From contig CAVZJV010000014.1 of the NCBI GenBank assembly GCA_963775685.1, positions 2,112,001 through 2,176,000 of the forward strand: DNA of 64,000 nt, given 5' to 3'. The notes beneath the pieces are model-generated. The model ran no database searches and was not told the DNA's origin. It saw only the letters and a list, made by a program, of their open reading frames with translations. This DNA is from Candidatus Bathyarchaeota archaeon. Lineage in GTDB: Archaea; Thermoproteota; Bathyarchaeia; Bathyarchaeales; Bathycorpusculaceae. Below, in pieces: positions 6,717 to 49,953 of this stretch (position 1 is its first letter; each line of letters starts with the position of its first letter). Both the position numbers and the translations under genes were made by a program.

Positions 6717-6974
6717 ATGTCAACCAGCTCAAAAGCTGAAATACTCCTAAAATTTGCATCCCAAAAACATGTTGTAACGCTGCTGGATGCATTAACTCCT
6801 GAAGCAAATGCGTTAGTAACAAGGCGAGCAAATGTGAAACTAGAAAAAGACGGCTTAACTCTTCTGTTGACGGTTGAGGCAGAAGACACCGTTGCCCTGC
6901 GAGCGACTCTTAACGCTTATCTGCGTTGGATAAACTCTGCAGTCAACGTCATGGATACAGTTGAGCGCGCTTGA
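6717..6974 (+). CDS. pcc1: KEOPS complex subunit Pcc1
   Basis: ALTPE and AEDTVALRATLNAYLRWI motifs; exosome-operon position. Confidence 0.85.
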   Translation: MSTSSKAEILLKFASQKHVVTLLDALTPEANALVTRRANVKLEKDGLTLLLTVEAEDTVALRATLNAYLRWINSAVNVMDTVERA

Positions 6975-12906: not shown

Positions 12907-13317
12907 ATGCCCGCAAAAAAAGTCTTAGTTGTTAGTGGAAAACGAAAAACCGCAGTTGCCCGTGCCATAGTTAAACAAGGCGTTGGCAAAGTACGAATAA
13001 ACTTAACTCCAGTTGAAATAGTTGAACCTGATATTGCTCGAGCAAAAATCATGGAACCCCTCTTGCAGGCAGGTGGTGACGTTTGGCAACAACTTGACAT
13101 GGACGTTAAGACCAGCGGCGGAGGTTACATGGGACAGGCAGAAGCAGCCCGCATGGCAATCTCAAACGCACTCCTAAAATGGACAAGGAGCACGCACCTG
13201 CGCACAGTTTTTAACGAGTACGACCGAACCATGATTGCTGGAGACAGCCGGACCAAAGAAACAAAGAAAGTCGGCGGAGCAGGCGCACGATCCAAAGAAC
13301 AGAAAAGCTACAGATAA
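12907..13317 (+). CDS. rps9: 30S ribosomal protein S9
   Basis: [19 protein letters not shown]-terminal QKSYR; start moved to ATG 12907. Confidence 0.97.
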
Positions 13318-34535: not shown

Positions 34536-35085
34536 TCTTAGTCCGTGCCCTAAGCTGGTTGTGAATGCAGTCTTGGAATGAATAGTTAAATGAGTGAAAG
34601 CAAGTAAAGGCTTATGAAATCGTAATTCTGACTGCTAATTCACTAGAGCAAAAACTTTTTTAAAGGTGGTTTTACAGTTGGCACAATTGTAGCAGTTCAA
34701 TTTGTCAGGTACTGAAGTTAAGTTGCCACATCCCAATAGAATGTATAAACATGAGCGAGAACATAGAATTATTGTTGAATCTTATCGTTAAGCCAATTTA
34801 GTTTATTTCTGGTTACCCTTCTGGTTCATTCTTTTTCTTAAAGTGAACTCCAAGATTTTAGGTAACTTATACCAAAGTTACGAAAAAAATATTTAGGTTC
34901 GTTTCAAGTCGTTTTTATCTTTATTTTATTTAAACAAAATTTATTGGGTAATTTAGTTACCAGTGACCACTTGCCACTCGATTTTATAAACTAAAACAAA
35001 GTAAAATAAGAAATGGTTAACCAAATTGGCATTTTAATGTTCTATTTGCTCGACCAAAAGAAAATTATAGGAGAGAAAAAAACGA

Positions 35086-37551
35086 ATGACAAAAAGTAAA
35101 ATGATTATTGCTATTGCACTAACAATTATGATGATTTTGCCTTCTATTGCTTTAATAACAGAAGTGGCAGGCGTTGATGTCGAAACTAGAATGTTCATAA
35201 GCGCAGTTCCAAATCCTATCGGTGTCGGCCAAAGAGTGAACGTACAATGGTGGCTTGCAATACCGAATCCTGTTGCTGGGACCTCTTGGGAAAACGTCAA
35301 AGTAATAATTGAAAACCCCGACGGGCAAATCCAGACTTTTGACAACTTAAAATCTGATATAAATGGAGGAGCATACATTTCCTTTGTCCCCGACAGAGTT
35401 GGGACATATAAAGTACATGCAAGCTTTCCTGGACAATGGGTAAACACCACCGGACCAAACGGTTACACTCGATATTACACGCCTCTTGAATCTAAAGTAG
35501 TCGAAGTCACTGTTCAAGAAGAACCAATTTCTGTCACGCCAGAATTGCCTTTTCCAAGCGAATACTGGACCAGACCAATAAACTCCGAAAACAGAGAATG
35601 GTTCCAAATTAGTGGTAATTGGTTAATGGGCAAAGGCGACAAGGATGCCGTAGCTTTTGAAGGCAGTGGCAACGCAAACTTCTACTCTACCGCACCAAAC
35701 ACAGGACACATAATGTGGACAAAACCACTACTTCCCGGAGGAATAGTTGGAGGAGAAATTGGCTATGGCGAAGCATACTACGGCGGACTCAATTACGAAC
35801 CCATGTTCAGACCACCAATAATAATGAATGGCGTACTTTATTACGAAACAGCCGAACCACCAAGATATGGAGTGATAGCCGTTGACGTGCGCACAGGAGA
35901 AACGATCTGGTACCAAAACATCTCTTACGGCTCAGGTTTTAACAGCTTAAGATTAGGTCAAGTATTCGACTATGACTCAGAGAATCAACATGGTAGCTTT
36001 GCGTATCTTTGGTTTAGCAGCGGCAGTACCTGGTACATGCACGACGCCTTCACCGGAAACTACATTCTAAGCGTAAGCGGCGTACCAAACGGTTACATTC
36101 AAATGGGGCCCAAAGGTGAGATTCTAATCTACAATGTTAACAATGCTCAAGGTTACGTACAGCTATGGAACTCATCCGCAATGCCCGGGTTATTTACCGC
36201 TTCAAACCCCTCAGAGAACCCAAATTCTGAGTGGCGACCAGAACAATCACAAGGACAAACGATTAACGGCTCGACTGGAATTCAATGGAAAGTTTCAGTA
36301 CCAACCGTAACTGGCGCAGGAAATGGCATCCAATGGCTTGATGAAAAATTAGGAGTATTTATCACAACCTCAACTGTTCAGCGGCCTACTGATGCATGGC
36401 CAACATTTGTTCACACAGCTTATAGTACCGAAACAGGCAATTTGCTTTGGACACAGAATCGAACCAATATAGGCGATATGAAATACCCCGTATACATCAA
36501 ACCCTACTCCGGAGTGTATGCACTTCCTTACAGAGAGAATAAACAATGGATCGGCTGGGATATGAAAACTGGCGATGAACTGTGGAGAGTTGATGGTCCC
36601 GAAGATGACTGGGGTATCTTTGATGTAGGAGGTGGCTTTGTTGGCGATATATTCTATACTGCAGGATTTGCTGGAGTTGTAACAGGTTACAATATTGAAA
36701 CCGGACAGAAAGTATGGGAGTTCTACAGCGGCAATTCAGGATTTGATACAACCTACGGTACTTGGGGATTCTACGGTGCATCAATAATTGCTGATGGAAA
36801 AATCTTCATAGCACACAATGAGCATTCACCTGACCAACCATTATGGCGAGGAATGAAGATGTGGGCTATCAACGCAACGACAGGAGAGGGCATATGGAAC
36901 ATTTCTGGAGCCTATCAAGGTGGAAGAAATGCCATGGGTGCCCTTGCCGACGGATTACTGGTGTCACACAATGCCATGGATAATCAAATATACGCATTCG
37001 GTAAGGGTCCAAGCACCACAACCGCTACAGCGTCGCCGAAGGTTACAACACGAGGAAACAGTTTGCTGATTGAGGGAACAGTTATCGATATAGCTTCTGG
37101 CACTTCACAAAATGAGCAAAGGGCTCGTTTTCCAAACGGTGTTCCAGCAGTCTCTGACAATAGCATGACTCCTTGGATGGAATACGTATACATGCAGAGG
37201 CCTCGTCCAACCGACGTTACTGGTGTTACAGTATTAATCGATGTCACCGATGCCAATGGCAACTATCGAAACATCGGCACAACCACAAGTGATGCCAGCG
37301 GCGCGTTTAGTTTCCAGTGGACTCCTGACATTGAAGGAAAATACACAGTTACTGCTACTTTCGCAGGATCTGAGTCTTACTGGCCATCATCAGCAGAAAC
37401 AAGCTTTGCTGTGGACTCAGCAGCTCCAACAGCATCTCCGTATCCAGAGATAACTTTACCTCCCACAGAAATGTACTTCGCAATCAGCACCATCGCAATT
37501 ATAATTGCAATATCAATAGTCGGCTTGTTATTACTCAGAAAAAGACCATAA
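35086..37551 (+). CDS. Secreted PQQ-like beta-propeller surface protein with Ig-like domains and C-terminal TM anchor
   Basis: Signal peptide; PNPIGVGQ; repeated AVDxxTGExxW blades; C-terminal hydrophobic helix ending RKRP. Confidence 0.9.
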   Translation: MTKSKMIIAIALTIMMILPSIALITEVAGVDVETRMFISAVPNPIGVGQRVNVQWWLAIPNPVAGTSWENVKVIIENPDGQIQTFDNLKSDINGGAYISFVPDRVGTYKVHASFPGQWVNTTGPNGYTRYYTPLESKVVEVTVQEEPISVTPELPFPSEYWTRPINSENREWFQISGNWLMGKGDKDAVAFEGSGNANFYSTAPNTGHIMWTKPLLPGGIVGGEIGYGEAYYGGLNYEPMFRPPIIMNGVLYYETAEPPRYGVIAVDVRTGETIWYQNISYGSGFNSLRLGQVFDYDSENQHGSFAYLWFSSGSTWYMHDAFTGNYILSVSGVPNGYIQMGPKGEILIYNVNNAQGYVQLWNSSAMPGLFTASNPSENPNSEWRPEQSQGQTINGSTGIQWKVSVPTVTGAGNGIQWLDEKLGVFITTSTVQRPTDAWPTFVHTAYSTETGNLLWTQNRTNIGDMKYPVYIKPYSGVYALPYRENKQWIGWDMKTGDELWRVDGPEDDWGIFDVGGGFVGDIFYTAGFAGVVTGYNIETGQKVWEFYSGNSGFDTTYGTWGFYGASIIADGKIFIAHNEHSPDQPLWRGMKMWAINATTGEGIWNISGAYQGGRNAMGALADGLLVSHNAMDNQIYAFGKGPSTTTATASPKVTTRGNSLLIEGTVIDIASGTSQNEQRARFPNGVPAVSDNSMTPWMEYVYMQRPRPTDVTGVTVLIDVTDANGNYRNIGTTTSDASGAFSFQWTPDIEGKYTVTATFAGSESYWPSSAETSFAVDSAAPTASPYPEITLPPTEMYFAISTIAIIIAISIVGLLLLRKRP

Positions 37552-38075
37552 GCCAACAAGAGGACACAAATAACCTCTTTTCCCTTTTTTATTGATGACT
37601 ACCTTTAAGGTTTTACTAATTTTTCTGGAAGGCTATAAGGTGATTTGCTGGTATCTTGTTAGGTGTCAAAGTTATGACTTTTACTAAACAAAACCAGAAA
37701 GGAAGATTCACTTTCCCGAAAGTTGGACGTAAGTTGTGACGGATGAGTAGCTAGTAAAAAATGCGGCGTGGTAAGTAAAATTGAAATGTGACCATACCTT
37801 AACTATTACGGGAAAGAATAAGCGGTTAATAAAAACAATTCACGGCTAAATTTACAGAGGAGCTAAATTTTGACGAAGAAGACTACACAAACCAAATTTG
37901 AAGAATATAAGCTGAGCGCTGTCAAAATTCCAGGCAAACTATTCGAACATTTCTATCGCCTCATAATTTCTGAAATTAAATATACAAATATGGCACTTTG
38001 CCAAATTGACCTTAAAGAAGCGGACTGGACGCAACATTTTTTTACAACGTGCTCTTTTTCTGGAGGAGACTGAAT

Positions 38076-39176
38076 ATGTCTGTTTTTGTGTTTGACCAAG
38101 AAACAATAGGAATGATTCGCTACATCCTGGCGCTCCAACGTTTTAAGGAGTATTCAGCTGGACCTCAAGGGCTAGACGAACATCTTTGTGTTCTGTCTTT
38201 CGAAAGGGTTCTGATCCAAACCGGGCTAAACTTTCCAAAGTTTCAGAAAGAAGCTCCGAGTGATATCCGAGCATATGATGTCATCCGATTCTTGGAGCAG
38301 AAAAGCCAGATAAGTGCTACAACAGCTAAGAAACTGAGAGAATACGTGGATTTTCATGACTCCCTATTATCTTCCTCCTCTCAAACCACCCAAAAAAAGA
38401 CTAATCCTAAAGCACAAGAAATTTTGCGGTTCCTTTGCACCGAAGCGGGTGTGGATCAAGATGAAGAACTCAAAAATAGAACATTTGAGGACATAGCAAC
38501 TCTGGGAACAAAGAAATCTTCCGAAAATGAGTACTTTGAGAAACTTGTTGAATCGGATTTTGACAATCTCGATAAACTCTATGAGAAATGTCCAACCTTG
38601 CAGTTGGAAATAGAAAAAAAATTGACGACCTCATTGCGAGGTGCAAAAATATCAGGGTTCACACCTAATACTGGAGGGATATGGTTACCTTTTGTTTCAC
38701 TCAAAGCACCTAATAATAGAACACATATTGATAAGGCAAGTATTGGAGTTGTCTTTACACCGGTCGATATTAGGATAGGCTTGGATTTCGGAAGTCAAGC
38801 TCACAAGTATAGGATAAGATATTATGAACTGCTCCTGAATGGAGAATTAATTAACGAGGTTGAATCTCTTAATAATAGAGATATGGGATACTGTCTCTGT
38901 GATACTTTTTGGCACTACCACATAAGAAACTTGCAATCTCTCCAATGGTGTCTTACTCTTTACAGTAGCACCAAGATGACTATTGAGGGTGCTATTGAAG
39001 AGACCAAACAACTCGAAGGAACCCCCTTGACGGCAAACAGGTACTTAATTAGTAAAGTGATTAGGAGACGACCGGAAGACTTTGCTTACATTATAAATGG
39101 GGTTGTCGATGAGATTGCGAAGACTTTAAACGAACTTTACCCCACGATGGCACTTATTAACAAAGCCGAAATCTGA
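38076..39176 (+). CDS. Hypothetical protein (possible degenerate HEPN-like N-terminus)
   Basis: GGAGGAG SD before ATG 38076; 366 aa; helical N-terminus, alpha/beta C-terminus. Confidence 0.7.
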   Translation: MSVFVFDQETIGMIRYILALQRFKEYSAGPQGLDEHLCVLSFERVLIQTGLNFPKFQKEAPSDIRAYDVIRFLEQKSQISATTAKKLREYVDFHDSLLSSSSQTTQKKTNPKAQEILRFLCTEAGVDQDEELKNRTFEDIATLGTKKSSENEYFEKLVESDFDNLDKLYEKCPTLQLEIEKKLTTSLRGAKISGFTPNTGGIWLPFVSLKAPNNRTHIDKASIGVVFTPVDIRIGLDFGSQAHKYRIRYYELLLNGELINEVESLNNRDMGYCLCDTFWHYHIRNLQSLQWCLTLYSSTKMTIEGAIEETKQLEGTPLTANRYLISKVIRRRPEDFAYIINGVVDEIAKTLNELYPTMALINKAEI

Positions 39177-39753
39177 ACACTTCGACGTGATGCAGACAGA
39201 AATGTTTTGAGCTTTGATTCTATTCCTTCGTAAGTTACCAATAATCTCAGCTTACGATGCATTGAACTTTAAAACCCTTTGGGAATTGGGTTGGAAACTT
39301 TGCTAATTAAACCAACGGCAAAGTTCCAAAAGCCCAAGATACTTAACATAAACGGGTAGAACGTACCATGAAGTATACATTCCGCTACTCAACTTACAAG
39401 ACGACAACTTCGAAGTAACAGAGGCAAGTACTTAGGAGGAAATAAGAAACTGAGTATAGCAGGATGGAGGAAGTACGATAAATAACAATTAACAGAACAT
39501 CAATATGCCCTTTTACAAAAAACCTGATAAGTTCTAAACATAGTACTTCTAATGTTATCGTATAAACGCAGCTGCATATGTAAAGCTTTTATAACGTCTC
39601 CCATGGCAACACCTAAGGCATCTCCCGCAAAACTTCTGCCGCAGATGTAAGCATAGTCCTTGTCCGGAAATAACATTTCTGCCTGAATGGATTTTCGGCT
39701 GATTATTAGAACTTTCAGATCTTTCGGACTGTGGATATTTGTTTGTTTTCGGC

Positions 39754-40101
39754 TCAGCAGGTTACGTGAATGATGGCGACCGCTTTTCTTTTTTCGTTTT
39801 CGATTTTGTCTATGATTTCTGGCGTCGGCATCGCGTATGTCTCGTATTCGTCCAGTATTTTCTGGGCTTTTTCAGTGATTGGCAAAGCTGCCTCATAGCC
39901 TGTTCCGACATAAACGACTTCTGGCTTCTCTTGCGACAAAAAATCCATTTCTTTCTCAGACAAAGGCGTATGGCCATAAATCGGTTTAAACTCTTTGGAT
40001 TTTTTCTTTTTTCGTTTTGAGATGTTACCGTCGACATGCATTATGATGTCTTCTTCATATTTGTGCCCGAATAATTTGACCGAACCAAAAGAGTCTTTCA
40101 T
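39754..40101 (-). CDS. Mth938-like (DUF498/AAMDC) protein
   Basis: SFG..YEEDI, PEVVYVGTG, PTPE, C-terminal IHVTC. Confidence 0.85.
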   Translation of the reverse strand: MKDSFGSVKLFGHKYEEDIIMHVDGNISKRKKKKSKEFKPIYGHTPLSEKEMDFLSQEKPEVVYVGTGYEAALPITEKAQKILDEYETYAMPTPEIIDKIENEKRKAVAIIHVTC

Positions 40102-40206
40102 TCAACACACCACTGCCCATTGGGCACTATTATGAAGGCATCGACTCGATTTGAACCTATTCCCTCACAGTTGCCCCTGCAATGTACGCTGAATCAGGGC
40201 ATGCGC

Positions 40207-40340
40207 AAGGTCTTCCAAAATCTGGGGGGTATAGAGGGAGTGAGGCTTTACGGGTTTTAGCTTATCATCAGAACATATAAAAAATATAAAATAGATATCG
40301 ATTTGTATTTCTCTTTCTATCCCGTTTCACGACAAGCCTT
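40207..40340. repeat. Cassette-delimiting repeat R1 (134 bp)
   Basis: AAGGTCTTCC-N13-TATAGAG...TTATCATCAGAACATATAAAA...GACAAGCCTT. Confidence 0.88.
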
Positions 40341-40505
40341 CGCCATCGTTAGTCCATGAGCCACCGGCGACAGTAAACGTTGACAACGCGCATTTTGGAA
40401 AGAGGTTTCACAATTCATATCCTGAATATTATGCTGGCTTTCATAAGTGAGTTAAGTACCTTGAATCTTAGTTGATCATCAACAACAGAATTCGAGGAAA
40501 ATAGT

Positions 40506-40709
40506 TTGAGCCAACAGTTGGATGTTAAAGGCAGGAAAGAATTGGAAGCTCAGATGGCTACGGTTTTCGGCGAAAAAATCAAAGACCTATCTGTGGAACT
40601 ACAAGAAATACTATTAGATGACTTGGCAACCGCGTTTGAGAATAGGCTTATCGTATTCAAACGTTCCAAGGAAACTAGGCGAGAAGGTTGGAACCATGAG
40701 ACGGTCTAA
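40506..40709 (+). CDS. Small hypothetical protein
   Basis: GAGG SD, TTG start; LSVELQEILLDDLATAFENRL helix; overlaps the downstream wHTH gene. Confidence 0.6.
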   Translation: MSQQLDVKGRKELEAQMATVFGEKIKDLSVELQEILLDDLATAFENRLIVFKRSKETRREGWNHETV

Positions 40710-40989
40710 ACTGGAAATGTATGTTGATATATTGAATGTCTTGGCTCAAAGGGGGCCTTTGAAGTTGACTCACGTTATGTACAAGGCTAATGTCAACTGC
40801 GGCGTTCTGAAGGAGCACCTTGAATTCCTAATTAAGCAGGGACTGGTTGATGAGAGAATTATTCGAAGAGAAAGAGTAGTCTACGCGATTACGCAACGGG
40901 GCATTAATGTGCTCAAGCAGTTCAAAGAGCTCAAAGAAGTGCTTCCTATAATCGAAGAAACAAAAAACCAAACACCCTATATGTTCTAA
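40696..40989 (+). CDS. Winged HTH transcriptional regulator (HTH_45-like)
   Basis: MRRSKLEMYVDIL..LTHVMYKANVN..YAITQRG. Confidence 0.88.
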   Translation: MRRSKLEMYVDILNVLAQRGPLKLTHVMYKANVNCGVLKEHLEFLIKQGLVDERIIRRERVVYAITQRGINVLKQFKELKEVLPIIEETKNQTPYMF

Positions 40990-41065
40990 CACTCCAATTC
41001 TTTTTCATATTCAACTGCGTAAACTGTCGACTAAGAGAACTCTGCCTTCTTCCTGCAAGCCTACC

Positions 41066-41205
41066 AAGGTTTTCCACGAATTTGTTCTCTTCTGGAGAGG
41101 AATGGGCTGTCTTAGTTTTATATTATCATCAGAACATAGAAAACAAAATAAATAAAATAAATTATGATTTGGCTTATCCTATGGCGTCCAATCTTGAAAG
41201 GCCTT
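41066..41205. repeat. Cassette-delimiting repeat R2 (140 bp)
   Basis: ACC-AAGGTTTTCC...TTATCATCAGAACATAGAAAA...CCTATG...GAAAGGCCTT-GGT. Confidence 0.85.
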
Positions 41206-41227
41206 GGTTATGGAGTGTTTGTGGCAT

Positions 41228-41557
41228 CTAATGTACACGCTTTGACAGGCGATTCTTCTGAGCATAAAGCAGTGGGGTTGTTTGATTTCGGGTTTCGTCT
41301 ATTATAGGTAACGCTTGTGTGAGTTCATGGAAATACTTCAGAACATTGATGCCGCGTTGAGTGATTGCGAAAACTACTCGCATTTTCGTGATCGTTCGTT
41401 TTTCGACCAGAGCTTGCTTAATTAAGAAGTCTAAGTAATCTGTAAGAACGTTACAGTTAACGTTAGCTTTGTACATGATATGTGTCAGCTTTGATGGACC
41501 TCTATGAGCTAACACGTTGAGAATGTCAACATAAATTATTAGTTTTGATCGTCTCAT
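41228..41557 (-). CDS. Winged HTH transcriptional regulator (HTH_45-like), paralog of 40696
   Basis: MRRSKLIIYVDIL..LTHIMYKANVN..FAITQRG. Confidence 0.88.
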   Translation of the reverse strand: MRRSKLIIYVDILNVLAHRGPSKLTHIMYKANVNCNVLTDYLDFLIKQALVEKRTITKMRVVFAITQRGINVLKYFHELTQALPIIDETRNQTTPLLYAQKNRLSKRVH

Positions 41558-41920
41558 CTTTGAACCCTTTCCCTCTCACATAAACGTATATATCTGCATG
41601 TTATGTGGCTGATTGGTATAAGCTTTTGCTATTTTTCGTTGTTTAATTCAAGCAATTATGCTTTTTATTAACAAATTATGATATTAGTATGATAAAAAAG
41701 AATTAAATGATGCATAAATTAGTGAATAATTGATGAATTGCAATGTGACTTGTGACTGTGCCGTGCCTACTACAATATTTAATATGATTTTCAAAGAATA
41801 ACTAGAATTTTCCTTGCTCAAGGATAGAGGAAATGAGAATGAGAAAAAAGGACATTCAAGAAAGTAATTTCATTTTGAGTAAAGATCGTACACGAAAATG
41901 TTGTTGCTCATAAAACACGC

Positions 41921-42118
41921 ATGCCTATTATCAAGTGTGTCTGTGGCTTCGAAATTTTAGTTGTGCCTGATTTGAAGGCTATGGACCGAGCCATAAAAAA
42001 TCATGTTGCCAAACACAAGAAATCGGATTATGGTATAGTGTTTGATTCTTTGGAGGAGTTTTTGACAGAGCGGACTTTGATGGCAGCAAGCAAAATGAGT
42101 TTGCCAAATGTAAGTTAG
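41921..42118 (+). CDS. Small putative zinc-binding protein
   Basis: CVCG...HVAKH motif; ends 9 bp before R3. Confidence 0.65.
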   Translation: MPIIKCVCGFEILVVPDLKAMDRAIKNHVAKHKKSDYGIVFDSLEEFLTERTLMAASKMSLPNVS

Positions 42119-42127
42119 TCGCTAGCC

Positions 42128-42260
42128 AAGGTCTTCCAAAATTTGGGCCCCATAGAGGAGAAGGTCTTCTGGAAAATATCTAATCATCAGAATATATAAA
42201 AATCAAATAAATTAAAATCAAACTTTTCTACTCTATACTCGCCAATTTTCGGCGGACCTT
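42128..42260. repeat. Cassette-delimiting repeat R3 (133 bp)
   Basis: AAGGTCTTCC-N13-CATAGAG..AAGGTCTT...TAATCATCAGAATATATAAAA...CTCTATA-N13-GGCGGACCTT. Confidence 0.9.
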
Positions 42261-42287
42261 TGTTCCCGCAATGGTCAATTAATTGTG

Positions 42288-42515
42288 TCATGGCTTAAAG
42301 ATAATGCAAACGCCCATTTCATTGTTTATGCGAAACTTTAGGCCTTTTTTGGCGATGAAATTTTGCAAAGGCGGTCTGCATTCATCCTTTATTGCCAGTT
42401 CAAACTTGCCCTTGTTTTCTCTGACAAAAATGGCTGTTGGCTGCGCTAAGTCATTAGCGATAATCTCTTTTAGCAGCGCCACTGTCTGCTCTCTTTGCAA
42501 GTGTACGTTCCCCAA
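42288..42515 (-). CDS. Small hypothetical protein
   Basis: 75-aa alpha/beta ORF ending 27 bp before R3; AAGGA upstream. Confidence 0.6.
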   Translation of the reverse strand: MGNVHLQREQTVALLKEIIANDLAQPTAIFVRENKGKFELAIKDECRPPLQNFIAKKGLKFRINNEMGVCIIFKP

Positions 42516-42684
42516 GTCCTTTAGTTGTTGACTTTGTATATAACGATTTGGCGAATTTCAATGTACATTGTATCGATTTTAGCCAGAGATTTTTCCGGAA
42601 ATTTTCGGACGCGCCCACACATAGGATCCTAGCCTTTGGACGGATTTAACATTTCTACCCAAGTGGATTTTCAGTGGACGGGTT

Positions 42685-42885
42685 TTAGATTTTTCTTACA
42701 GTGGCTACGCGTCCGGTTGGCGTGTCGGTCATTTGCCATTCGAGCGTATCGCCTGGTTGTAAATTCAAAAATTCAGCTATTCCCTCGGGTATTGTTGCCC
42801 TCAAGCTTTTCGATTTTGGCCTGGCTATTGATGTTTTCGATTGAAGAGGCATGTGGCTTTTTCTCCGTTTACTTCTATGTTCCAT
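42685..42885 (-). CDS. AbrB/MazE/SpoVT-family DNA-binding protein
   Basis: SLRATIPEGIAEFLNLQPGDTLEW. Confidence 0.85.
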   Translation of the reverse strand: MEHRSKRRKSHMPLQSKTSIARPKSKSLRATIPEGIAEFLNLQPGDTLEWQMTDTPTGRVATVRKI

Positions 42886-42964
42886 AGATTATTTATTTCT
42901 ACCTATTTATTGGCAGATAAGTTTATATGTGTTTTTGACCATGCTTTATTGTAGGTAGATATGT

Positions 42965-43244
42965 ATGGCAACACAAGTCTTAACTCGAAAACAAATGGGC
43001 GACATGATTGCCCTGGAAGACATCGTTGAATTGAATCCTCAAACCTATTTCGTCAAGTCCCAGAGTTCGAGAGGTGGCTACTCTGTGACAAGGTTCGGGC
43101 AAAGTTGGACGTGCGATTGTCCCCGACTACCGGTACCGGGGAATCAAATGCAAGCGCATCCACGCTGTTGAAGCTCAAATTTCGCAGGTTTCCTCTAAAC
43201 AGGCATGGCCGTTTCCGATAGGGTTATGGGAGGCGACGCGATGA
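42965..43244 (+). pseudogene. SWIM zinc-finger protein with a +1 frameshift (CCCC at 43121-43124)
   Basis: YFVKSQS..YSV..WTCDCP then, minus one C, DYRYRGIKCKRIHAVE; SWIM His replaced by Arg; stop overlaps next ATG. Confidence 0.75.
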
Positions 43245-43456
43245 TCGAGAGCTGTCCCGACTGCGGATCGAAACATCTTAAGACTTTAGGAATAGAAAAG
43301 AGCGATCGGCTTGGCGACAACTGCACCGTTCTCGTTACAATGTGTAAGTGCAAAGACTGTGAGTGCGAGTTCCGCGAATTCATGGTCACCCACTGGCACC
43401 TCGCAATCACCAAGCACGACCGAATAGAGAGGCTGTTCATGGAGGCGCAACCTTGA
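43241..43456 (+). CDS. Small zinc-ribbon protein
   Basis: CPDCGS...CKCKDCECEF; GGAGG SD; ATGA coupling. Confidence 0.75.
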   Translation: MIESCPDCGSKHLKTLGIEKSDRLGDNCTVLVTMCKCKDCECEFREFMVTHWHLAITKHDRIERLFMEAQP

Positions 43457-43659
43457 CGTGCCCTGAGTGCCGCGAGATGAACTCCAAGGTTCTCGGATTC
43501 ACAGAATCAAGCAACCTACGAATTGCCCAATTCAAATGTAAGAGTTGTGGATGCGTCTATTCCGTCAAAACTCAAACGGAAATCAATGTCTTGGAACATG
43601 GCAAACGGGCTTGGATGATGGAAGTCTATCAAAAAAAAGAGGAGCGTCAAGCCCTATGA
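43453..43659 (+). CDS. Small zinc-ribbon protein (similar to the preceding one)
   Basis: TTG start after GGAGG; CPEC...FKCKSCGCVY. Confidence 0.7.
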   Translation: MTCPECREMNSKVLGFTESSNLRIAQFKCKSCGCVYSVKTQTEINVLEHGKRAWMMEVYQKKEERQAL

Positions 43660-43701
43660 AATCTCCTATAATAGGCTTGAACACATTTGCCGTAAATCCT
43701 G

Positions 43702-44295
43702 CTATGCTTTCCCCGCTTTGTCTTTAGGAGCTGAAGGAGCAACAATTATCTGGCCTTTTAGGACATCAAACGTAATGCTGTGGTCTTTTAAGAAATTAGA
43801 AACCGAGGCCTTGATATTCTTAAAATATCGATCCCATGTAGCTTTGTATCTATCAAGTTTTGCATTGATCATGGCGTCTCTAACTTCACCTTGCAGATAA
43901 AGGTTAATTGTCTCAGTTATGCAAGTGCTAGCTTTGGTTAAATCGTTTAGAAGATCAGAATTGTCAATTCTTGCAAAGGCAACATCTGTTTTGTCTTCGG
44001 GATTCGTAGAAAATAGAGATTTAGCCGAAATTATAACCGCAGGGCTACCTTTTATTTTGAAGGTTTTTATCACTTGCTTGTATTCTTCAGCCGCTAAACT
44101 CCATGCTCCAACGAAAATTGTCTTGCCGGCATCTTTTCCGTAATCCAATAACGCCTTTTTCAACTCCTCATATTTTATCATTCCTGGAATGTAGAAAACG
44201 TACACATCGCAGTCTTCCGGAATTTCAGAGGATAGTTTCAGGTCAGGAACGCTAATTTTCATTATTGTTTGAGGTTTAAAAAGTAGTTCAGGCAT
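43702..44295 (-). CDS. Hypothetical protein, possible thioredoxin-like fold without CxxC
   Basis: VYVFYIP..helix..FKIKGSPAVIIS pattern; starts 62 bp from R4. Confidence 0.65.
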   Translation of the reverse strand: MPELLFKPQTIMKISVPDLKLSSEIPEDCDVYVFYIPGMIKYEELKKALLDYGKDAGKTIFVGAWSLAAEEYKQVIKTFKIKGSPAVIISAKSLFSTNPEDKTDVAFARIDNSDLLNDLTKASTCITETINLYLQGEVRDAMINAKLDRYKATWDRYFKNIKASVSNFLKDHSITFDVLKGQIIVAPSAPKDKAGKA

Positions 44296-44357
44296 TTCAA
44301 CCGCCGGTTTTGGATATGATGTTTTCTTAATTTAAGCCTTTGCAGACCTTAAATTAT

Positions 44358-44492
44358 AAGGTCTTCCAAAAATTTACCCCCATAGAGGGAAGAAGGTCTT
44401 TCCGGTTTAAGCTAATGCTCAGAACACAAAAATATAAAAAAATATAATATTGAATGAACCTGCTCTATACCCCTCCGTCGGTGGAAGGCCTT
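44358..44492. repeat. Cassette-delimiting repeat R4 (135 bp)
   Basis: AAGGTCTTCC-N13-CATAGAG..AAGGTCTTTCC...TAATGCTCAGAACA...CTCTATA-N13-GGAAGGCCTT. Confidence 0.9.
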
Positions 44493-44928
44493 ATTTGGTG
44501 AAGCTGTCGGGTTGAGCGTCTTCTTCAAGCAAGCTTGTATACAAGCGAAATTTTTCATCGTAAATGTCGGCCAAATGCGCATCATCCCAGATTTTTGATC
44601 GGCTCCTGACGGCTGCGTGCCAAAACTTCTGCTCTTCTTCATATCCGGCAACGTAAACTTCAAGAAAATAGAAGACTTCGCATTCTTGATTCTCTATCTT
44701 AGGAATGAAGGCATAAGTGACAATGCCTTGTTCGTTGTCCGAAGTAAATTTCATCGCGTTTTGGATGCTGGCAGACATTGTTTTTAGCGTTTCTTTGATT
44801 GCTGTTTTATGGCTTTTGGGAATCTTGTTTTTCTTGTTCCAGAGGATTTCGCAGTCTAAAGACAGAGAACTCTTCCATGTGGCATCTTGCACATTAGTGG
44901 TTCCTCGGGATATAAGGCCTTCCAACAA
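44491..44928 (-). CDS. Hypothetical cassette protein
   Basis: ORF fills the R4-R5 interval; TAA overlaps the R4 end; true start may be an internal GTG near 44893. Confidence 0.65.
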   Translation of the reverse strand: MLEGLISRGTTNVQDATWKSSLSLDCEILWNKKNKIPKSHKTAIKETLKTMSASIQNAMKFTSDNEQGIVTYAFIPKIENQECEVFYFLEVYVAGYEEEQKFWHAAVRSRSKIWDDAHLADIYDEKFRLYTSLLEEDAQPDSFTK

Positions 44929-44965
44929 TTGGGGGGGTATAGAGGGAAGAAGGTCTGTCTGGTTA
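44914..44965. repeat. Left-half repeat R5 (attI-like position upstream of the recombinase)
   Basis: AAGGCCTTCC-N14-TATAGAGGGAAGAAGGTCTG, then diverges; no central motif or right arm. Confidence 0.8.
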
Positions 44966-45073
44966 GCCTACGGCCTCTTTTTGAGCTTATTTTCTTGCCC
45001 ATTTCTTACCATAGGGACGACTTGTACAGTATTAATTCAGATTGCTTTGGGCTTTCCTTTGAGGTAATCCTGA

Positions 45074-46279
45074 ATGAGCTTTCTCGCCTGCCCAACCTGC
45101 AAATCATTGCGACTGTTCAAGAACGGCAAGCGCAAGCTTCGGACTGGCGAGAAGGTTCAAACTTACATATGCCGCGAGTGCGGGAAACGGTTTGCTGAAC
45201 CTCGGCCGCAACAGGTTTCTCCTGAGAGGTCAATAAATAGCCCAGGCGGTACATCGATAGATAGTCAAATATGCGCTTTAAAGGAAGCGAAAAATTTGGT
45301 CTTTGCACAAAAAACCAAGATTTGTGCGGGAGAAAAACAACCACATGAACCAGCAAAGTTATTGCCACCAGACGCAGTAAGCTTAATCACACAGTTGATG
45401 GCATGGCTTGAGAAAGAATGCTATGCCCACGAAAATAGCTACCCCGCCTTTCTACGTTCGCTTGTTAATCGCGGCGCCAACCTAAGGGACCCCGAAAACG
45501 TCAAAGAAATCATCGGGAAAATGAATTGCAAGAACGGCACCAAGATGCTGTATAGCTATGCCTACAAAGCCTTGGCAGATATGCTGAAAATACCTTTTGA
45601 GCGACCTAAGAACCTGAAACAAGACGACTTTGACCCTACATTCCTGATGAGTCTGAACTTGACGCAGTGATAAACGCAGCACTAAAAAAAAGAATGGCTA
45701 CCTACCTGCAAACACTCAAAGAAACTTTCGCTGACCCAGGAGAGGCTTTACGAATCAAATGGATTGACATCAATGAAAAAAATAGCACAGTCAAAATCAA
45801 CTACCCTATAAAAGAACACAATACGCGGACGCTCGAGGTCTCAAACAAGCTAATTGCCATGCTCAACGCTTTACCCAAGACATCCGAACTTATTTTTCCC
45901 ATAAAATACTCCAGTATGCTATATACTTACGTCCGCCTGCGTAAGCGTGTCGCTGAGTTGCAGCAAAACCCTCGTATTCCATCAGTCGAGCTTAAGGTCT
46001 TTCCGCCATTGGGGAGGCACAATGCTTGCTTGGAAGTCCAACGGCAATGTTTTGATAGTGAAAAATATGTTTGGACATAAGAACGTAAAAAACACGATGA
46101 GGTATATCGGAAAGATACATTTCAAGGATGACGACTTTGAAACAACAGCCGCAACTACTCTCGAGGAGGTCCTTGCATTAGGAAAAGCTGGTTGGATAAA
46201 GTATGATGAAATCACCGTCGGCGGCACAATTGTACACGTTTGCAAGAAACCCAAGAAGTTCCAAAGCGCTGCGGTCTAA
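45074..46279 (+). pseudogene. Tyrosine recombinase/integrase with N-terminal zinc ribbon; two compensating frameshifts
   Basis: CPTC..YICRECG; box I LKETFADPGEALRIKW; box II (R/K)SFRHWGG..FGHKNVKNTMRY; -1 near 45635 and +1 near 45995; repaired length 401 aa. Confidence 0.88.
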
Positions 46280-46401
46280 AAAAACCGCTCAGAATCTCGA
46301 TATATACTATTAAGGTCAAAATAGATATCATTAAGCTTTTATACGTATGTTGATGAGAGATGTTAAAAAGAAGATGAGCGCTTCCGAGAGGTAAAGACTA
46401 A

Positions 46402-49400
46402 ATGCCCTACATAAAAAAAATCGAGTTAAAAGGCTTTAAGTCTTTTGGACCCCAAACAGTAAAAGTTAATCTAGATAAGGGGTTCACGGCCATAACTGGT
46501 CCAAACGGAAGCGGCAAAACCAACATCATGGACGCACTCCTCTTCTCGTTGGGCGAATTGAGCACCAAAAGGCTCCGTGCCGAAAACTCGGCTAAACTGA
46601 TTTTTCATGGTTCCGAGAAAGCTGGGCAAGAAAAAGCAAAAATGGCAAAGGTAGTTGTCCAATTCGACAACACTGATGGCACCATGCCTGTTGATACGAC
46701 TACCGTAACGATTTCAAGAGAAGTATACCGCAACGGGCAAAGTATTTACCGCTTAAACGGGCGCAGAATGTCCCGCACACACATTACCGAAACCCTCTCC
46801 ATGGCTGCAATCAGTAGCATGAGCCAAAACATCATCCCCCAGGGCACAATCACGCGTTTAACCGACCTAACCTCTATGGAAAGGCGAAAAATCATTGAAG
46901 ATCTCATCGGCATAGCTCAGTACGACTCTGAAAAGACTGAGGCGGAAGAGAAACTTCGTGCTGCCGATATATCCATCCGTACCGCCATGGGCAGAATCGA
47001 CGAAGTTCAAAAACGCCTCGACGACCTTGAAAGGGAACGCAACCAACTCCTTCGCTACAATTTTATCCAAGCCGAAATCCGAAAATTTCAAGCCGTCAAA
47101 ATCTCAAACGACGTTGCCCAGCAAAACACAAAAATTAGCGAAAACACAGCCCAAGCCCTGAAGGTCAAAGAGAGAGTTGACAAGCTAAAAGAACAACGGG
47201 ACCTACGAAGGAGCAAACGTCATACAATTGAGGGTGACTGGAGAAAGCTCAGCGGTGAAGGCCTTGAACAAGGAGGCTCAGAAGTTCTCAAGGTCCAAAT
47301 AAAGATTGGGGAGCTAAAATCCAATTTAACTGAATTAACCACCAAGATTAGTTCGGGGCAGTCGAGCCTAGAAAGCTTCAGACGTGTTAGAGAAAACAAC
47401 CTAAACCAACACGACACGTTGCAGAAAGAAATAAGGGAAAACAGGCTTAGAATCCGCTCCTTCCGTACGGAGCTCGAAAAACTAAAGGATCAGTTGGCAG
47501 AAAAACAAGTAGCACATGAAGGGCTAGCAAAGGAAACTGCCCAGCTCTGGGAGGGACTAGACGGCAACAACCAGCAAATCCGCGCTCTAGATAACCAGAC
47601 CCAAGAGCACCTTAAGCGACTGGCATACTTGCGTTCTGAATACAAACAAGACAAAGCAGCCTTACGCCTCTGCGCTGGCAGACTCAAGAACCTGAGCGTA
47701 CGCAAAGAGAAATTCCAGTCAAGCCAAGTTGAAATCGAAAAATCCTTGTCTGAACTTGAGCAGGTGCAGCGTGACCAGAGAGCCCAATTCAAAAACCTTG
47801 AACATACAATCGAACGCAAAAAACTTCAAAAAGAAACTGTTCAAAAAGAAATTGCGGAAGCAGAAAAAATCGCTAGCTCCGCAAAAGACGCCGTAGTAGA
47901 ATTCGCGACACAAAGAGACCTTGCCGCAACCATCGCTGCCGAAGAAAAAGCCCTGCGAGGAATTGAAGAAATGGGCGATGTGGGCGCGATTTCGGGTATT
48001 CATGGTCGGCTTCGCAACTTGATAAAGCTCGATAAGAGCTTCAAGAAAGCCATCGAAGCAGCCGCCACAGGCTGGCTAGACGCACTGGTCGTAAAGGACG
48101 TCGACATTGCCTTCACCTGCACAGAAACACTGCGTCGCATGAAACTTGGAAGAATCAAAATCATTCCCCTCCAAGGCGCAATAACCATCAAAAACAAAGC
48201 ACCCCCCAAACGCGAAGGCGTCATGGGGCCCCTCTCTAGTTTCATGAAGTATGATGGCGAATTTGAACTAGCGGTTAATTATGTGTTCGGAGATACAATA
48301 GTTGTCTCAAACGACAAGACCGCTTTTGCCTTATCAAATGAAGGTTACCGCGCTGTCACTACAAGTGGCGACCTCTATGAGCCAGGCGCTTTTGAGGGAG
48401 GTTACTACCGTGCACCAATCGACTTCTCTACAATAATCCCCAGTGAAGGCGCACTAAAGAGCCTTGACGAAGCTGTAAAGGCGCTCCAGACCCACCTGAT
48501 CCAACGCGGCACGGACATTGTAAGCATCGAAGAAGAGCTTGAACACGCCAAGATTGAGATAACCCGGCTAGTTGACTCTATCGCCACCTTAGACAGGGAA
48601 ATCATTAGGGTAAAGAGGGGCGTTAAACGTACTCAGTTCAACATTCGCCACATCGACAAGTACGGCGGCAAACTTGAACGCGAAGCAGCCGCTTACAAAG
48701 GACGCATGGCTATGTTCCGCAACGAACGCAACTCCATTCAGGGAAGCCTCAAAAAAATCCACACTGAAATCGCAAGCTTGAGGTTGAAAACTGACCTAGC
48801 ACACATCCAGGAGATGGAGGTTCAGCGGGAAAAGCTCGGTGAAGAAGCCAACACTCTTCGGCAAAGGTTAGGGTCAGTGCAAACGGAAATATCTACTCAC
48901 CAATCCCAGTTTGACAGGGTTTTGCGGGTGAGTTACAAGAACACCAAGATAACGCTTTCAAGAATGGATCAGCAGCAAGGTAAACTTGCAAAAGAAGTGG
49001 CAGATGCACTGCTTGAACGCGACACAATCAAAAAAGAAGCCGAGGAGCTGGAGAAGAGTCGCGTGGAGCTTTCAAATGCTGTGCTCTCTGCGCGTGAGGA
49101 ATCCAAAAAATTCACCAGCCAAATCGATAGCATCGACGGGGAGTTGCGGCTTTTGGACACCGAGTACGAGCAGGCTGACAGGCTTCTAAATCAACTTAAC
49201 CTGGGTATAGAAACCACTCAGATGCGTCTTCAGCAGCTTCAAGGGCAACTTAAACAGTTCGGCTATGAGCAGCCCTTAGAAACTAGTCCTCGGCAGGTGC
49301 AGGAGGCAGAAACAACCATTCGCATGATGCAGTTTGAAATGGAACGCATCGGCGCCATAAACCAGCTGGCGGCCCAGCATTACTCTGACCAGATTTCACG

Positions 49401-49953
49401 TTACCGAGAACTGTCCGTGCGCCTAAACGAGTTGGAGCGGGAAAAACAAGCCATTGTGGCGTTTATGGATGAGATTGAAGCCAAAAAACGCAAGGTTTTT
49501 ATGAATGCGTTTGAAAAAATTAACATCAGCCTAAAAGTGTATTTTGCCAAGCTTACAGGCGGTGGAGAAGCAACCCTTAAGTTGGAAAACCCAGAAGAAC
49601 CCTTCTCCGGAGGTATAGACATGGTGGTGCAGTTCCCAAACAAACCCTCCATTGTTGTAAGCGGTGCAAGCGGCGGCGAACGTTCCGTTTCAGCCGTTAG
49701 CTTCATATTCTCCCTCAAAGAATTCTCTCCCGCATCCTTTTACATCCTAGACGAAGTTGATGCCCACTTAGATGCGTACCACACAACCAAACTTGCCGAG
49801 GTACTTTTGGAGGAAGCGGGAAAAATCCAGTTCATTGTAATCAGCCTACGCCCGGAAATGGTTAACAAAGCACAGAAAGTCTACGGCGTCTACGAACGCA
49901 ACGGCATCTCAAATGTGGTAACGGCAAAATTCCCGCAGGAGGCACCACACTAA
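46402..49953 (+). CDS. smc: Chromosome segregation protein SMC
   Basis: Walker A GPNGSGKT, coiled coils, hinge, SGGE signature, Walker B ILDEVDA. Confidence 0.97.
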   Translation: MPYIKKIELKGFKSFGPQTVKVNLDKGFTAITGPNGSGKTNIMDALLFSLGELSTKRLRAENSAKLIFHGSEKAGQEKAKMAKVVVQFDNTDGTMPVDTTTVTISREVYRNGQSIYRLNGRRMSRTHITETLSMAAISSMSQNIIPQGTITRLTDLTSMERRKIIEDLIGIAQYDSEKTEAEEKLRAADISIRTAMGRIDEVQKRLDDLERERNQLLRYNFIQAEIRKFQAVKISNDVAQQNTKISENTAQALKVKERVDKLKEQRDLRRSKRHTIEGDWRKLSGEGLEQGGSEVLKVQIKIGELKSNLTELTTKISSGQSSLESFRRVRENNLNQHDTLQKEIRENRLRIRSFRTELEKLKDQLAEKQVAHEGLAKETAQLWEGLDGNNQQIRALDNQTQEHLKRLAYLRSEYKQDKAALRLCAGRLKNLSVRKEKFQSSQVEIEKSLSELEQVQRDQRAQFKNLEHTIERKKLQKETVQKEIAEAEKIASSAKDAVVEFATQRDLAATIAAEEKALRGIEEMGDVGAISGIHGRLRNLIKLDKSFKKAIEAAATGWLDALVVKDVDIAFTCTETLRRMKLGRIKIIPLQGAITIKNKAPPKREGVMGPLSSFMKYDGEFELAVNYVFGDTIVVSNDKTAFALSNEGYRAVTTSGDLYEPGAFEGGYYRAPIDFSTIIPSEGALKSLDEAVKALQTHLIQRGTDIVSIEEELEHAKIEITRLVDSIATLDREIIRVKRGVKRTQFNIRHIDKYGGKLEREAAAYKGRMAMFRNERNSIQGSLKKIHTEIASLRLKTDLAHIQEMEVQREKLGEEANTLRQRLGSVQTEISTHQSQFDRVLRVSYKNTKITLSRMDQQQGKLAKEVADALLERDTIKKEAEELEKSRVELSNAVLSAREESKKFTSQIDSIDGELRLLDTEYEQADRLLNQLNLGIETTQMRLQQLQGQLKQFGYEQPLETSPRQVQEAETTIRMMQFEMERIGAINQLAAQHYSDQISRYRELSVRLNELEREKQAIVAFMDEIEAKKRKVFMNAFEKINISLKVYFAKLTGGGEATLKLENPEEPFSGGIDMVVQFPNKPSIVVSGASGGERSVSAVSFIFSLKEFSPASFYILDEVDAHLDAYHTTKLAEVLLEEAGKIQFIVISLRPEMVNKAQKVYGVYERNGISNVVTAKFPQEAPH

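Follow-up and report, generated by a model that had tools for sequence, protein, structure and literature searches.

A co-oriented 135-bp repeat at the junctions of gene modules in integrative elements of Candidatus Bathyarchaeota

The stretch of DNA analysed here, referred to as the window, comprises 64,000 nucleotides from the genome of Candidatus Bathyarchaeota archaeon (G000; 3.06 Mb, 14 contigs) and corresponds to C14:2112001-2176000, C14 being the contig that carries it. Upstream of smc, the window contains an 11.55-kb island (34680-46234) whose integrase-proximal half holds an array of five copies (R1 to R5) of a repeat of about 135 bp, which we named R; the copies separate groups of small genes, and a tyrosine integrase gene lies between the last copy and smc (Table 1). 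Positions are given in window coordinates unless they are prefixed with C14, C5, G or L, where G-numbers denote the genomes of relatives and L-numbers denote loci. An earlier sequence-only reading of this region had proposed an integron-like cassette array that uses novel repeats and the neighbouring recombinase, which was considered not to be of the IntI type, and that is anchored next to smc.

The repeat search recovered the four co-oriented repeats and the left-half copy described in that reading, all of them on the plus strand between 40206 and 44965, and a genome-wide nhmmer search placed just R1-R5 inside the window, in agreement with the statement that it has no other full copy. The described gene boundaries were also found: the recombinase gene starts at 45074, 109-110 nt past R5, and points away from the array, and the edges of R4, R2 and R3 meet ends of open reading frames (ORFs) in the list obtained for the window. 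The stop codon of the 145-aa ORF overlaps the final bases of R4, the 65-aa ORF stops 8-10 nt ahead of R3, and two ORFs on the minus strand, the 109-aa ORF and 42288-42515, end about 20-25 nt past R2 and R3, respectively. The break in R5 coincides with the left boundary of the central box of the repeat. Two features had gone unnoticed, namely the inverted terminal arms present in each full copy and about 15 more copies of R elsewhere in G000.

The left arm of R consists of AAGGYCTTCC, a small palindrome (CCA-N5-TGG), a run of G or C, and TATAGAG. Past this arm lie a second AAGGTCTT motif and the central box CTWATCATCAGAAC, which is followed directly by ATATAAAA and an A-rich stretch (in short form, the conserved box reads ATCATCAGAAC + TATAAAA); the right arm, CTCTATA..GGAAGGCCTT, is the left arm inverted. 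The inverted arms are about 30 nt long (for example, 40207-40236 and 44463-44492, with 77% complementarity), and the termini of the repeat read AAGG...CCTT. Among 62 full copies from about 16 genomes, the conserved blocks are AAGG, TTCCA, TATAGAG, AGGTCTT, CTTATCATCAGAAC, TAAAA, CTCTAT and GGAAGGCCTT, the central box being the best-conserved part of R, and the stretches between the blocks vary. Since the conservation across species is confined to discrete blocks among variable stretches, it most probably reflects selection on the sequence and not decay. Two forms of the run beside TATAGAG in the left arm exist among the copies, GGGGGTA and its reverse complement TACCCCC (R1 40225-40232 and R4 44375-44382; alignment columns 17-27), which looks like a 7-nt segment flipped between subtypes.

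No stable hairpin was detected in seven DNA folds of six copies (z-scores from -1.35 to +0.99), RNAalifold yielded a consensus structure with 0 pairs for 14 copies, and the Rfam search of the 38-48 kb region, with E values up to 1, gave only a chance PrfA match outside the repeats. A long-range pairing of the arms was rejected, given that there is no covariation, that copies with the left GGGGGTATAGAG lack the right CTCTATACCCCC, and that RNAalifold found none.

By nhmmer, G000 contains about 14 full and several partial copies of R (about 20 matches), which form three arrays (the one in the window, C14:1523.2-1525.0 kb and C14:2383.9-2392.9 kb) and occur as single copies at C14 1469.2 kb, C14 2284.8 kb and C5:119.9 kb and as a fragment at 466.6 kb. 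A sequence-only covariance model of R (142 positions) was used on G000 and a comparison set of 60 relatives, made up of 36 congeneric genomes and 24 that represent 11 other families of the order. About 130 matches were obtained in 15 of the 61 genomes; R is present in 14 of the 36 congeners and in none of the 24 genomes from other families, and it is thus a new repeat family restricted to one genus of Candidatus Bathyarchaeota. Close arrays recur in many congeners, with seven copies in 5.3 kb at L019 and eight copies at L020. With three arrays and single copies in G000, and with R in 14 congeners, the repeat is not confined to a system anchored next to smc. The expectation that a profile of the repeat would find arrays clustered beside homologous recombinases was borne out as regards the arrays, present in many of those 14 congeners; most arrays have no nearby integrase. 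When viral contigs were searched with a 19-nt pattern of the box, three matches were obtained, which share the box alone. The fragment at 466.6 kb is of the left type (C14:466585-466655) and lies about 540 nt from a DDE-type (DUF772/DDE_Tnp_1_6) insertion sequence (IS) at 467194-468627, a family with four full-length copies in G000, one of which has an internal stop, plus fragments.

The orientation of R is close to invariant within arrays. Considering 76 copies from 27 sources and neighbouring pairs separated by up to 5 kb, 41 of 42 pairs are co-oriented, which supports the description of the repeats as co-oriented junctions between gene modules. For the 56 full copies with called neighbours, the gene to the right of R is on the minus strand in 39 cases, and its stop codon overlaps the terminus of R in at least nine.

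That R is where gene modules are acquired, lost and exchanged is well supported by comparison of the arrays. The module R2-wHTH-65aa-R3 (41118-42238; wHTH, winged helix-turn-helix) recurs at C14:1524915-1523811 with 86% identity, and the module R4-145aa-R5 (44360-44952) recurs at C14:1523918-1523332 with 90% identity. At this second locus (L001) the two adjoin each other without module 3 (2.1 kb), and the repeat that joins them is R3-like on its left side and R4-like on its right side, a chimera that marks the deletion of module 3. A part of module 3 recurs beside a solo R at C14:2282367-2284121 (72-75% identity). Homologues of the 109-aa winged-helix protein adjoin R at L001, L002, L019, L020, L025 and L032; at the last five of these loci the wHTH/65-aa pair lies beside R, and in G023 this pair is the last module before smc. 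Close homologues of the 65-aa protein (E<1e-15) were found in 11 of the 14 R-positive and in none of the 22 R-negative congeners. The order in which the wHTH/65-aa pair precedes the AbrB module is shared, with insertions and deletions, by the window, L001 and L019, and the 145-aa module comes next in the window and L001; given this recurring order, part of what appeared as an array is conserved backbone of the element. At the tRNA-Cys site, the tRNA-proximal module is a different one in each of the four species with R at this place. The content of the modules is not invariant and differs both between paralogous loci and between species. A module of about 450 nt beside R (L005 5720-6200 and L002 14323-14800) is 93% identical between two loci of G000 and has homologues of 67-88% identity in nearly all congeners, including R-negative ones, as a multi-copy family of small genes.

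The 145-aa protein shows 97% and 92% amino acid identity to its copies in G012 and G001. The nucleotide identity of its module (95.1% and 93.7%, respectively) is far above that of the first 498 nt of smc (80.9% and 82.5%), which indicates a recent transfer of this module between species. The unit formed by the 145-aa gene and a whole R4-type repeat is embedded in unrelated outer sequence at each of its occurrences (window, L047, L050 and, in part, L045), its homology stopping at the terminus of R. Across 43 high-identity alignments between arrays, a set dominated by the 145-aa module, 33 ends fall inside R: six at the left terminus, seven at positions 36-55, two at 86-87 and 18 in the right arm. 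The break points inside R thus lie at several positions, often at the box, and this heterogeneity fits a homology-guided exchange better than a single fixed crossover; partial copies break near the box. Public sequencing runs were also searched, and none of them contains the window locus (word share of 0.05-0.06 at most). The contigs of the four sequencing-run assemblies that were compared come from other soil organisms and join different repeats (for example, 44953>41115 and 44391>41116), representing alternative arrangements in relatives; a reading of these joints as excision in G000 was rejected because they belong to relatives.

The segment 34.6-46.3 kb of the window has no counterpart between the corresponding flanks in G001, G014 and G015, where the genes of 30.2-34.5 kb lie directly upstream of smc; from this adjacency, we conclude that the segment is an insertion. 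At its ends lies a 12-bp direct repeat, GGCACAATTGTA, which with up to one mismatch has only two matches in the window, at 34680 and 46223, against 0.41 expected, and which provides the candidate attachment (att) sites. The 12-mer is weak by itself, since comparable scans yield several chance 11-14-mers, and it carries weight because it coincides with the independently found synteny break. Most relatives retain a decayed integrase tail directly upstream of the conserved smc promoter, and the shortest of these remnants begin at about the position of the right copy of GGCACAATTGTA. The presence of integrase remnants before smc in most of the congeners compared indicates that this site has long been a hot spot of repeated integration in the genus. 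The length of the remnants is about 70 codons in some congeners and the last ~15 codons in others.

Several other arrays lie in elements associated with tRNA genes. Arrays abut tRNA-Cys in G000, G001 and G023, with the nearest R ending 19, 38 or about 70 nt from the 3' end of the tRNA, and tRNA-Thr in G016 (33 nt) and G000. At L019, a perfect 47-nt repeat of the 3' half of tRNA-Thr (6750-6796 and 12938-12984) delimits a 6.1-kb element that includes all seven R copies and no integrase, and that would hence depend on an integrase supplied in trans. Other tRNA-derived direct repeats were found at L001 (46 nt), L002 (25 nt) and L020 (26 nt and 22 nt). The 26-nt tRNA-Cys fragment of L020 is located directly behind an integrase fragment, which is a signature of tandem accretion; the order at tRNA-Cys in G002 is integrase fragment, 26-nt fragment, 22-nt fragment and tRNA. 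No tRNA fragment was found between R copies in the arrays of L019, L001, L002 and L020, from which it follows that R is not the att site of this integrase family and that the arrays are cargo of the integrative elements. Tandem accretion as the source of the periodicity of R was likewise rejected, as the tRNA fragments flank the arrays and never separate R copies. At the tRNA-Cys hot spot, eight R-negative genomes and three R-positive genomes without R there contain unrelated DNA and no recognisable core-only site. The segment L001 4995-11973 (C14:1514995-1521973), between tRNA-Leu and tRNA-Thr, contains ORFs of 929 and 1407 aa with no Pfam family; the same pair of tRNA genes is 175 nt apart in G016 (L019).

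The integrase of the window is split over three frames (45074-45670, 45634-46080 and 45947-46279) by single-base frameshifts near 45632-45637 and 45985-45995, and its middle piece gives a weak PF00589 match (20.5 bits). Real decay is favoured over an assembly error because other members of the family are broken while ORFs of 800-1400 aa are intact. This family has about 12 paralogous copies or fragments in G000, a genome with 19 PF00589 matches and in which no serine recombinase and no Y1 transposase were found. An intact 429-aa paralogue (C14:1513280-1514569) matches PF00589 with 87.7 bits and contains a Zn ribbon recognised by DUF7838 below the cut-off. Its scores with the integron integrase models are 56.2 bits for TIGR02249 (cut-off 265) and 29.4 bits for NF011946 (cut-off 435), its best curated model being the archaeal XerA (91 bits, below the cut-off of 220), and the middle and C-terminal fragments of the window enzyme did not match the integron models. 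These scores, together with the folds and the termini of R, are all negative and uphold the view that the sites are not standard attC and that the enzyme is not IntI. Upstream of the intact integrase, at a distance of 30 kb, lies an orphan tail, and the two have a 22-nt core (21/22) and a diverged tail in common; a further paralogue terminates at a tRNA gene whose 3' part is duplicated next to an orphan tail. The candidate att core thus seems to lie inside the integrase gene, within the last 19 codons in the window and about 45 codons before the stop in the paralogue int1513, for which integration seems to swap just the C-terminal tail; Pfam recognises only PF00589 in these enzymes.

The assignment of the neighbouring recombinase to R, on which the sequence-only reading relied, was not sustained. 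This enzyme is one of the dozen or so members of a mobile-element family, its island has its own 12-bp repeat, and the sister arrays are bounded by tRNA-derived repeats of 22-47 nt. When about 18 arrays or solo R loci were inspected in stretches of up to 20 kb, integrase genes or fragments were found within 3 kb of R in five of them; these share the orientation of R without exception, and every one is broken or truncated. The other 13 had no integrase in the stretch examined. In the last ~100 aa, the window enzyme is 24-35% identical to all eight enzymes compared, and those adjacent to R show no grouping or lineage of their own. R has no similarity to the 3' regions or att sites of the integrases (best E 0.2 in a 10-kb database), and its derivation from an integrase 3' end or att was rejected. 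The window integrase is the degraded, att-specific enzyme of the island itself and probably not that of a dedicated cassette system.

It is well supported that R is a functional, selected junction element of a family of integrative elements. A more specific proposal, which we favour with some reserve and rate at slightly under an even chance, is that R is a junction and probably regulatory repeat of these elements, comparable to the PeSL (promoter early stem-loop) sequences of phages. Small integrative elements would carry R as a block-conserved junction in their cargo part, and the island of the window would be one of them, inserted between a conserved gene and smc. The multi-copy integrase family would target the 3' ends of tRNA genes, or here the site upstream of smc, leaving att repeats of 12-47 bp. 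Recombination between two head-to-tail copies of R would loop out or insert the intervening genes, most crossovers occurring at the central box or beside it, and the element family would thus be modular as T4-type phage genomes are through PeSL. The gain, loss and exchange of modules at R also explain the strict co-orientation of the copies. Read on the minus strand, R would most likely be a composite regulatory module with a small arm hairpin and a U-run that would terminate transcription of the gene ending at its right arm, followed by the TATA-like box TTTTATAT. On this strand, R has runs of T5-T7 and then TTTTATAT, which resembles the conserved box TTTTATAC of the smc promoter; what suggests a promoter or terminator function is this resemblance of motifs. 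Proteins of the winged-helix, AbrB and zinc-ribbon types abound in the elements, R contains operator-like palindromes, and its arms may act as operators for the winged-helix or AbrB regulators of the element. A regulatory role of R and the absence of a dedicated recombinase are, in sum, what we infer; among the recombinase families compared, none was found to track R across genomes.

Several observations weigh against this proposal, and part of them favour a possible but less probable explanation, namely a dedicated site-specific cassette system, analogous to integrons, that would recombine at R. According to it, R would be an attP-like site with three AAGGYCTTCC arm motifs and CCA-N5-TGG palindromes around a core at the ATCATCAGAAC box, circular modules with one R would enter and leave resident copies or secondary sites consisting of the core alone, and the enzyme would be a member of the Zn-ribbon integrase family or another tyrosine recombinase of G000, acting in cis or in trans. 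The orientation of R is only loosely linked to that of the flanking genes (classes of 22, 17, 11 and 6 of 56), the orientation between R copies being far stricter, and the distance from R to the start of the next downstream gene ranges from 37 to >1000 nt. The copies are 60-75% identical, with identical runs of about 19 nt at most, which is a poor substrate for ordinary homologous recombination. Partial copies retain the box in 27 of 28 left-type and 12 of 12 right-type cases, a manual count biased by the box itself, which contributes most of the score. They also show polarity: right-type partial copies come first in six arrays and not in three, and left-type copies come last in eight or nine arrays and not in two or three (a manual tally from which one contig-end case was dropped). 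In two cases a single module lies between a right-type and a left-type half R whose only common part is the box, as for attL and attR, and two independent left-type copies both end after ...CAGAAYATA, joined to different integrase tails of about 14 and about 45 codons. Retention of the box, polarity and identical end points look more like attL and attR, or like cleavage at a defined core, than like homologous exchange, and it is mainly for this pattern that we grant the site-specific explanation a substantial minority share of the probability. It is also favoured by the co-orientation of nearly all pairs, by gene stops that abut or overlap the terminus of R as they do at attC, by the recurrence of the 145-aa gene with its downstream R4-type repeat between unrelated flanks, by the enrichment of integrases near R (the five loci mentioned above, compared with roughly one integrase per 250 kb), and by the divergent orientation of the window integrase relative to most module genes around R5, as for intI and its cassettes. 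On the other hand, the integrase family uses other att sites, to which R bears no similarity; the R-adjacent integrases are all damaged and no closer to each other than to other paralogues; most loci lack one; the break points inside R are heterogeneous; the box is a weak palindrome (10/15) without the usual two inverted binding arms around a 6-8-bp spacer; and modules comprise up to six genes in both orientations. The fullest version of this explanation, in which the elements carry their own integron-like cassette system, independent of IntI and attC, with 135-bp attP-like sites, crossover at the 11-bp box and an enzyme provided in trans, is in our opinion rather unlikely.

Two other explanations fail specific tests. 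R could be a miniature inverted-repeat transposable element (MITE), or an element similar to repetitive extragenic palindromes and bacterial interspersed mosaic elements (REP/BIME), spread by a transposase, its arrays piling up in permissive accessory DNA. The size of R, its arms of ~30 nt, its intergenic position, the existence of solo copies and the patchy distribution among congeners (14/36) agree with this, and its two inverted palindromic units around a linker are reminiscent of BIME and Correia elements; nonetheless, we consider it improbable. There is no target-site duplication, as identical flanks were found in 0 of 51 cases for k=3, 4 and 5, and in 5 of 51 for k=2 against a shuffled mean of 5.4; taken with the non-random orientation, this separates R from ordinary MITEs. 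The conservation of blocks across species points to function, not decay, and flank searches from two solo copies met variable regions or multi-copy modules and gave no clean pair of filled and empty sites. A link to REP-associated tyrosine transposases (RAYT) was rejected because Y1_Tnp (PF01797) has 0 matches in G000; it is present in six of the 14 R-positive and nine of the 22 R-negative congeners. An origin from an IS was rejected for the one DDE family seen beside arrays, which has unrelated 31-nt terminal repeats, and none of the candidates examined (DDE IS, Y1 transposase and serine recombinase) is an autonomous partner with the termini of R. A still more remote idea, which we regard as very improbable, is that R is a mini replication origin of small host-dependent replicons, with arms (TTCCA..GGGG) similar to origin recognition boxes (ORBs) around an A/T-rich unwinding stretch. 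It is true that a G-run follows TTCCA in the arms and that these lie on either side of an A-rich centre, and the candidate chromosomal origin by orc1/cdc6 (C14:1876181) has TTCCAGTAGAA..GGGGT boxes around an A/T-rich stretch. This resemblance to the chromosomal ORBs is, however, loose: TTCCA and the G-run are separated by 6-8 nt instead of 11 nt, the dyad differs, the R profile has no match in the origin region even at E 10, the best-conserved part of R is the central box and not the arms, and as many as seven origins over 5 kb of a single element would make little sense.

The remaining genes of the island are listed in Table 1. No Pfam family passes for the 821-aa protein, which gave only a weak BamB-like hint in NCBIfam; large beta-propeller proteins also occur between R copies at L022. 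Searches of PHROGs, Pfam and NCBIfam with the module proteins gave only wHTH, weak AbrB/MazE and weak Zn-ribbon matches, and recognition of the 145-aa and 197-aa proteins in the ESM Atlas was below a useful level, with no family. The two HTH_45 genes are paralogous and face each other across R2, forming an inverted repeat of 167 nt (40684-40850 and 41403-41569, 71% complementarity). Outside the island, the block 13.8-21.4 kb is inverted relative to G001 and adjoins the 30.3-kb block, and 21.4-30.2 kb is a second variable segment of the window.

Table 1. Coordinates of the repeats, island features and related loci (window positions unless prefixed)
Feature	Position	Strand	Basis or remark
R1, full, degenerate right arm	40206-40341	+	Covariance model, 100 bits
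R2, full	41064-41207	+	Covariance model, 72.7 bits
R3, full	42126-42262	+	Covariance model, 88.8 bits
R4, full, best-preserved inverted arms	44357-44494	+	Covariance model, 93.4 bits
R5, left arm and second AAGGTCT motif only	44913-44965	+	Model positions 4-55 of 142
Candidate attL, left copy of the 12-bp direct repeat GGCACAATTGTA	34680-34691	+	Synteny break relative to G001, G014, G015
Predicted surface protein, 821 aa, island cargo	35086-37551	+	N- and C-terminal hydrophobic segments
375-aa ORF, island cargo	38049-39176	+	Family scans without match
115-aa ORF	39754-40101	-	DUF498 match below cut-off (22.4 bits; cut-off 33)
Winged-helix HTH_45 protein, 123 aa	40618-40989	+	PF14947, 59.5 bits
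Winged-helix HTH_45 protein, 109 aa, in the commonest module	41228-41557	-	Family scan
Cys/His-rich protein, 65 aa, wHTH partner in the commonest module	41921-42118	+	Sequence homologues
Module 3: 75 aa (-), 66 aa AbrB/MazE-like (-), 68 aa (+), two Zn-ribbon-like (+), 197 aa (-)	42288-44295	mixed	
145-aa ORF, family scans without match	44491-44928	-	Module recently exchanged between species
Tyrosine integrase with N-terminal Zn ribbon, two 1-nt frameshifts	45074-46279	+	PF00589
Candidate attR, right copy of GGCACAATTGTA	46223-46234	+	Within the last 19 integrase codons
smc, conserved flank outside the element	46402-49953	+	71-88% aa identity in 37/40 congeners
Integrase C-terminal remnants upstream of smc	46097-46330; L036 12323-12409; L037 12338-12546; L040 11986-12159		
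Single module flanked by half R copies, G000	C14:2392206-2392303 / 2392813-2392881		
Single module flanked by half R copies, G002	G002:C9 7898-7811 / 7424-7338		
Tandem elements, G002	L020 14488-15089, 19302-19323; L021 582-658		
Core/tail pair of the intact integrase	C14:1484402-1484536 and 1514427-1514562 (L001 4427-4562)		

The comparison with known systems delimits what is integron-like in these arrays. Archaeal integrons have an IntI with an additional domain and attC sites that fold (PMC9668308); the main text of that report does not contain the term 'Bathyarchae'. As in integrons and in clusters of attC sites lacking integron integrases (CALINs), the co-oriented repeats separate small, mostly uncharacterised genes whose ends abut the repeat, modules are shared across arrays and species, and most arrays have no nearby recombinase; in the window, the recombinase is also divergent from most module genes. 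The R arrays differ from integrons in that they have no IntI, no single-strand hairpin, no RYYYAAC/GTTRRRY ends and no consensus structure. Moreover, R is 135 bp long with a conserved centre and crossover points that appear not to be fixed, the modules hold one to six genes in both orientations, and several arrays occur per genome, inside att-bounded elements. The designation of the array as integron-like is consequently retained for its layout and the behaviour of its modules and dropped for its parts, IntI and attC.

PeSL are composite terminator/promoter repeats that mediate insertions, deletions and swaps by homologous recombination in T4-type phages (PMC4122927). R shares with them a short conserved intergenic motif whose copies follow one another head to tail where the mobile genome is hyperplastic, the bracketing of small orphan genes, the end points of indels and swaps inside the motif, and probably the lack of a dedicated recombinase. 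It differs in residing in an archaeal integrative element and not in a lytic phage, in being about twice as long, in having inverted arms, and in its more diverged copies (60-75% identity); the promoter/terminator role is, in the case of R, suggested from sequence.

The elements themselves resemble known archaeal integrative elements. A review describes archaeal tyrosine integrases whose own gene contains att, as well as tandem integration and the exchange of modules between integrated elements, and identifies PF16795 as a domain of 'suicidal' SSV-type integrases (PMC8371274). The island has its integrase at the end next to att, like the pNOB8/SNJ2 and SSV/pTN3/pT26-2 types, with which the R elements also share tRNA 3' targets (with direct repeats of 22-47 nt here), tandem accretion and decay to integrase remnants. 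By comparison, the window enzyme combines an N-terminal Zn ribbon (DUF7838, below cut-off) with PF00589 and gave no PF16795 match in the scans, and since its candidate core is in the last 19 codons, integration would swap the tail only. Internal arrays of a 135-bp repeat did not appear for such elements in the passages of that review that were consulted.

BIME/REP and Correia elements are approximately 100-150 bp long, consist of two inverted palindromic units around a linker, are located at the 3' ends of genes, and may affect termination and promoters. In contrast to them, R has a low copy number, forms co-oriented arrays inside mobile elements and shows no TA-type duplication, and G000 has no RAYT/Y1 transposase. 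No description of the repeat was found in our literature searches, and the publications found on mobile elements of Bathyarchaeia are surveys of viruses and proviruses only.

Mobile elements of Bathyarchaeia are little described, and the model of R provides a searchable marker for a family of small integrative elements, for the reshuffling of their cargo and for its passage between species. If the exchange of modules is driven by an enzyme, R would represent a second, independent invention of the integron principle, inside an archaeal mobile element, and under such a cassette system the elements could trade cargo between species while parked at tRNA genes. If the exchange is driven by homology, the idea of a 'mobile regulatory cassette' put forward for PeSL would extend from T4-type phages to archaeal integrative elements. 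In either case, these results advise caution in assigning the recombinase found beside a repeat array as the enzyme of that array.

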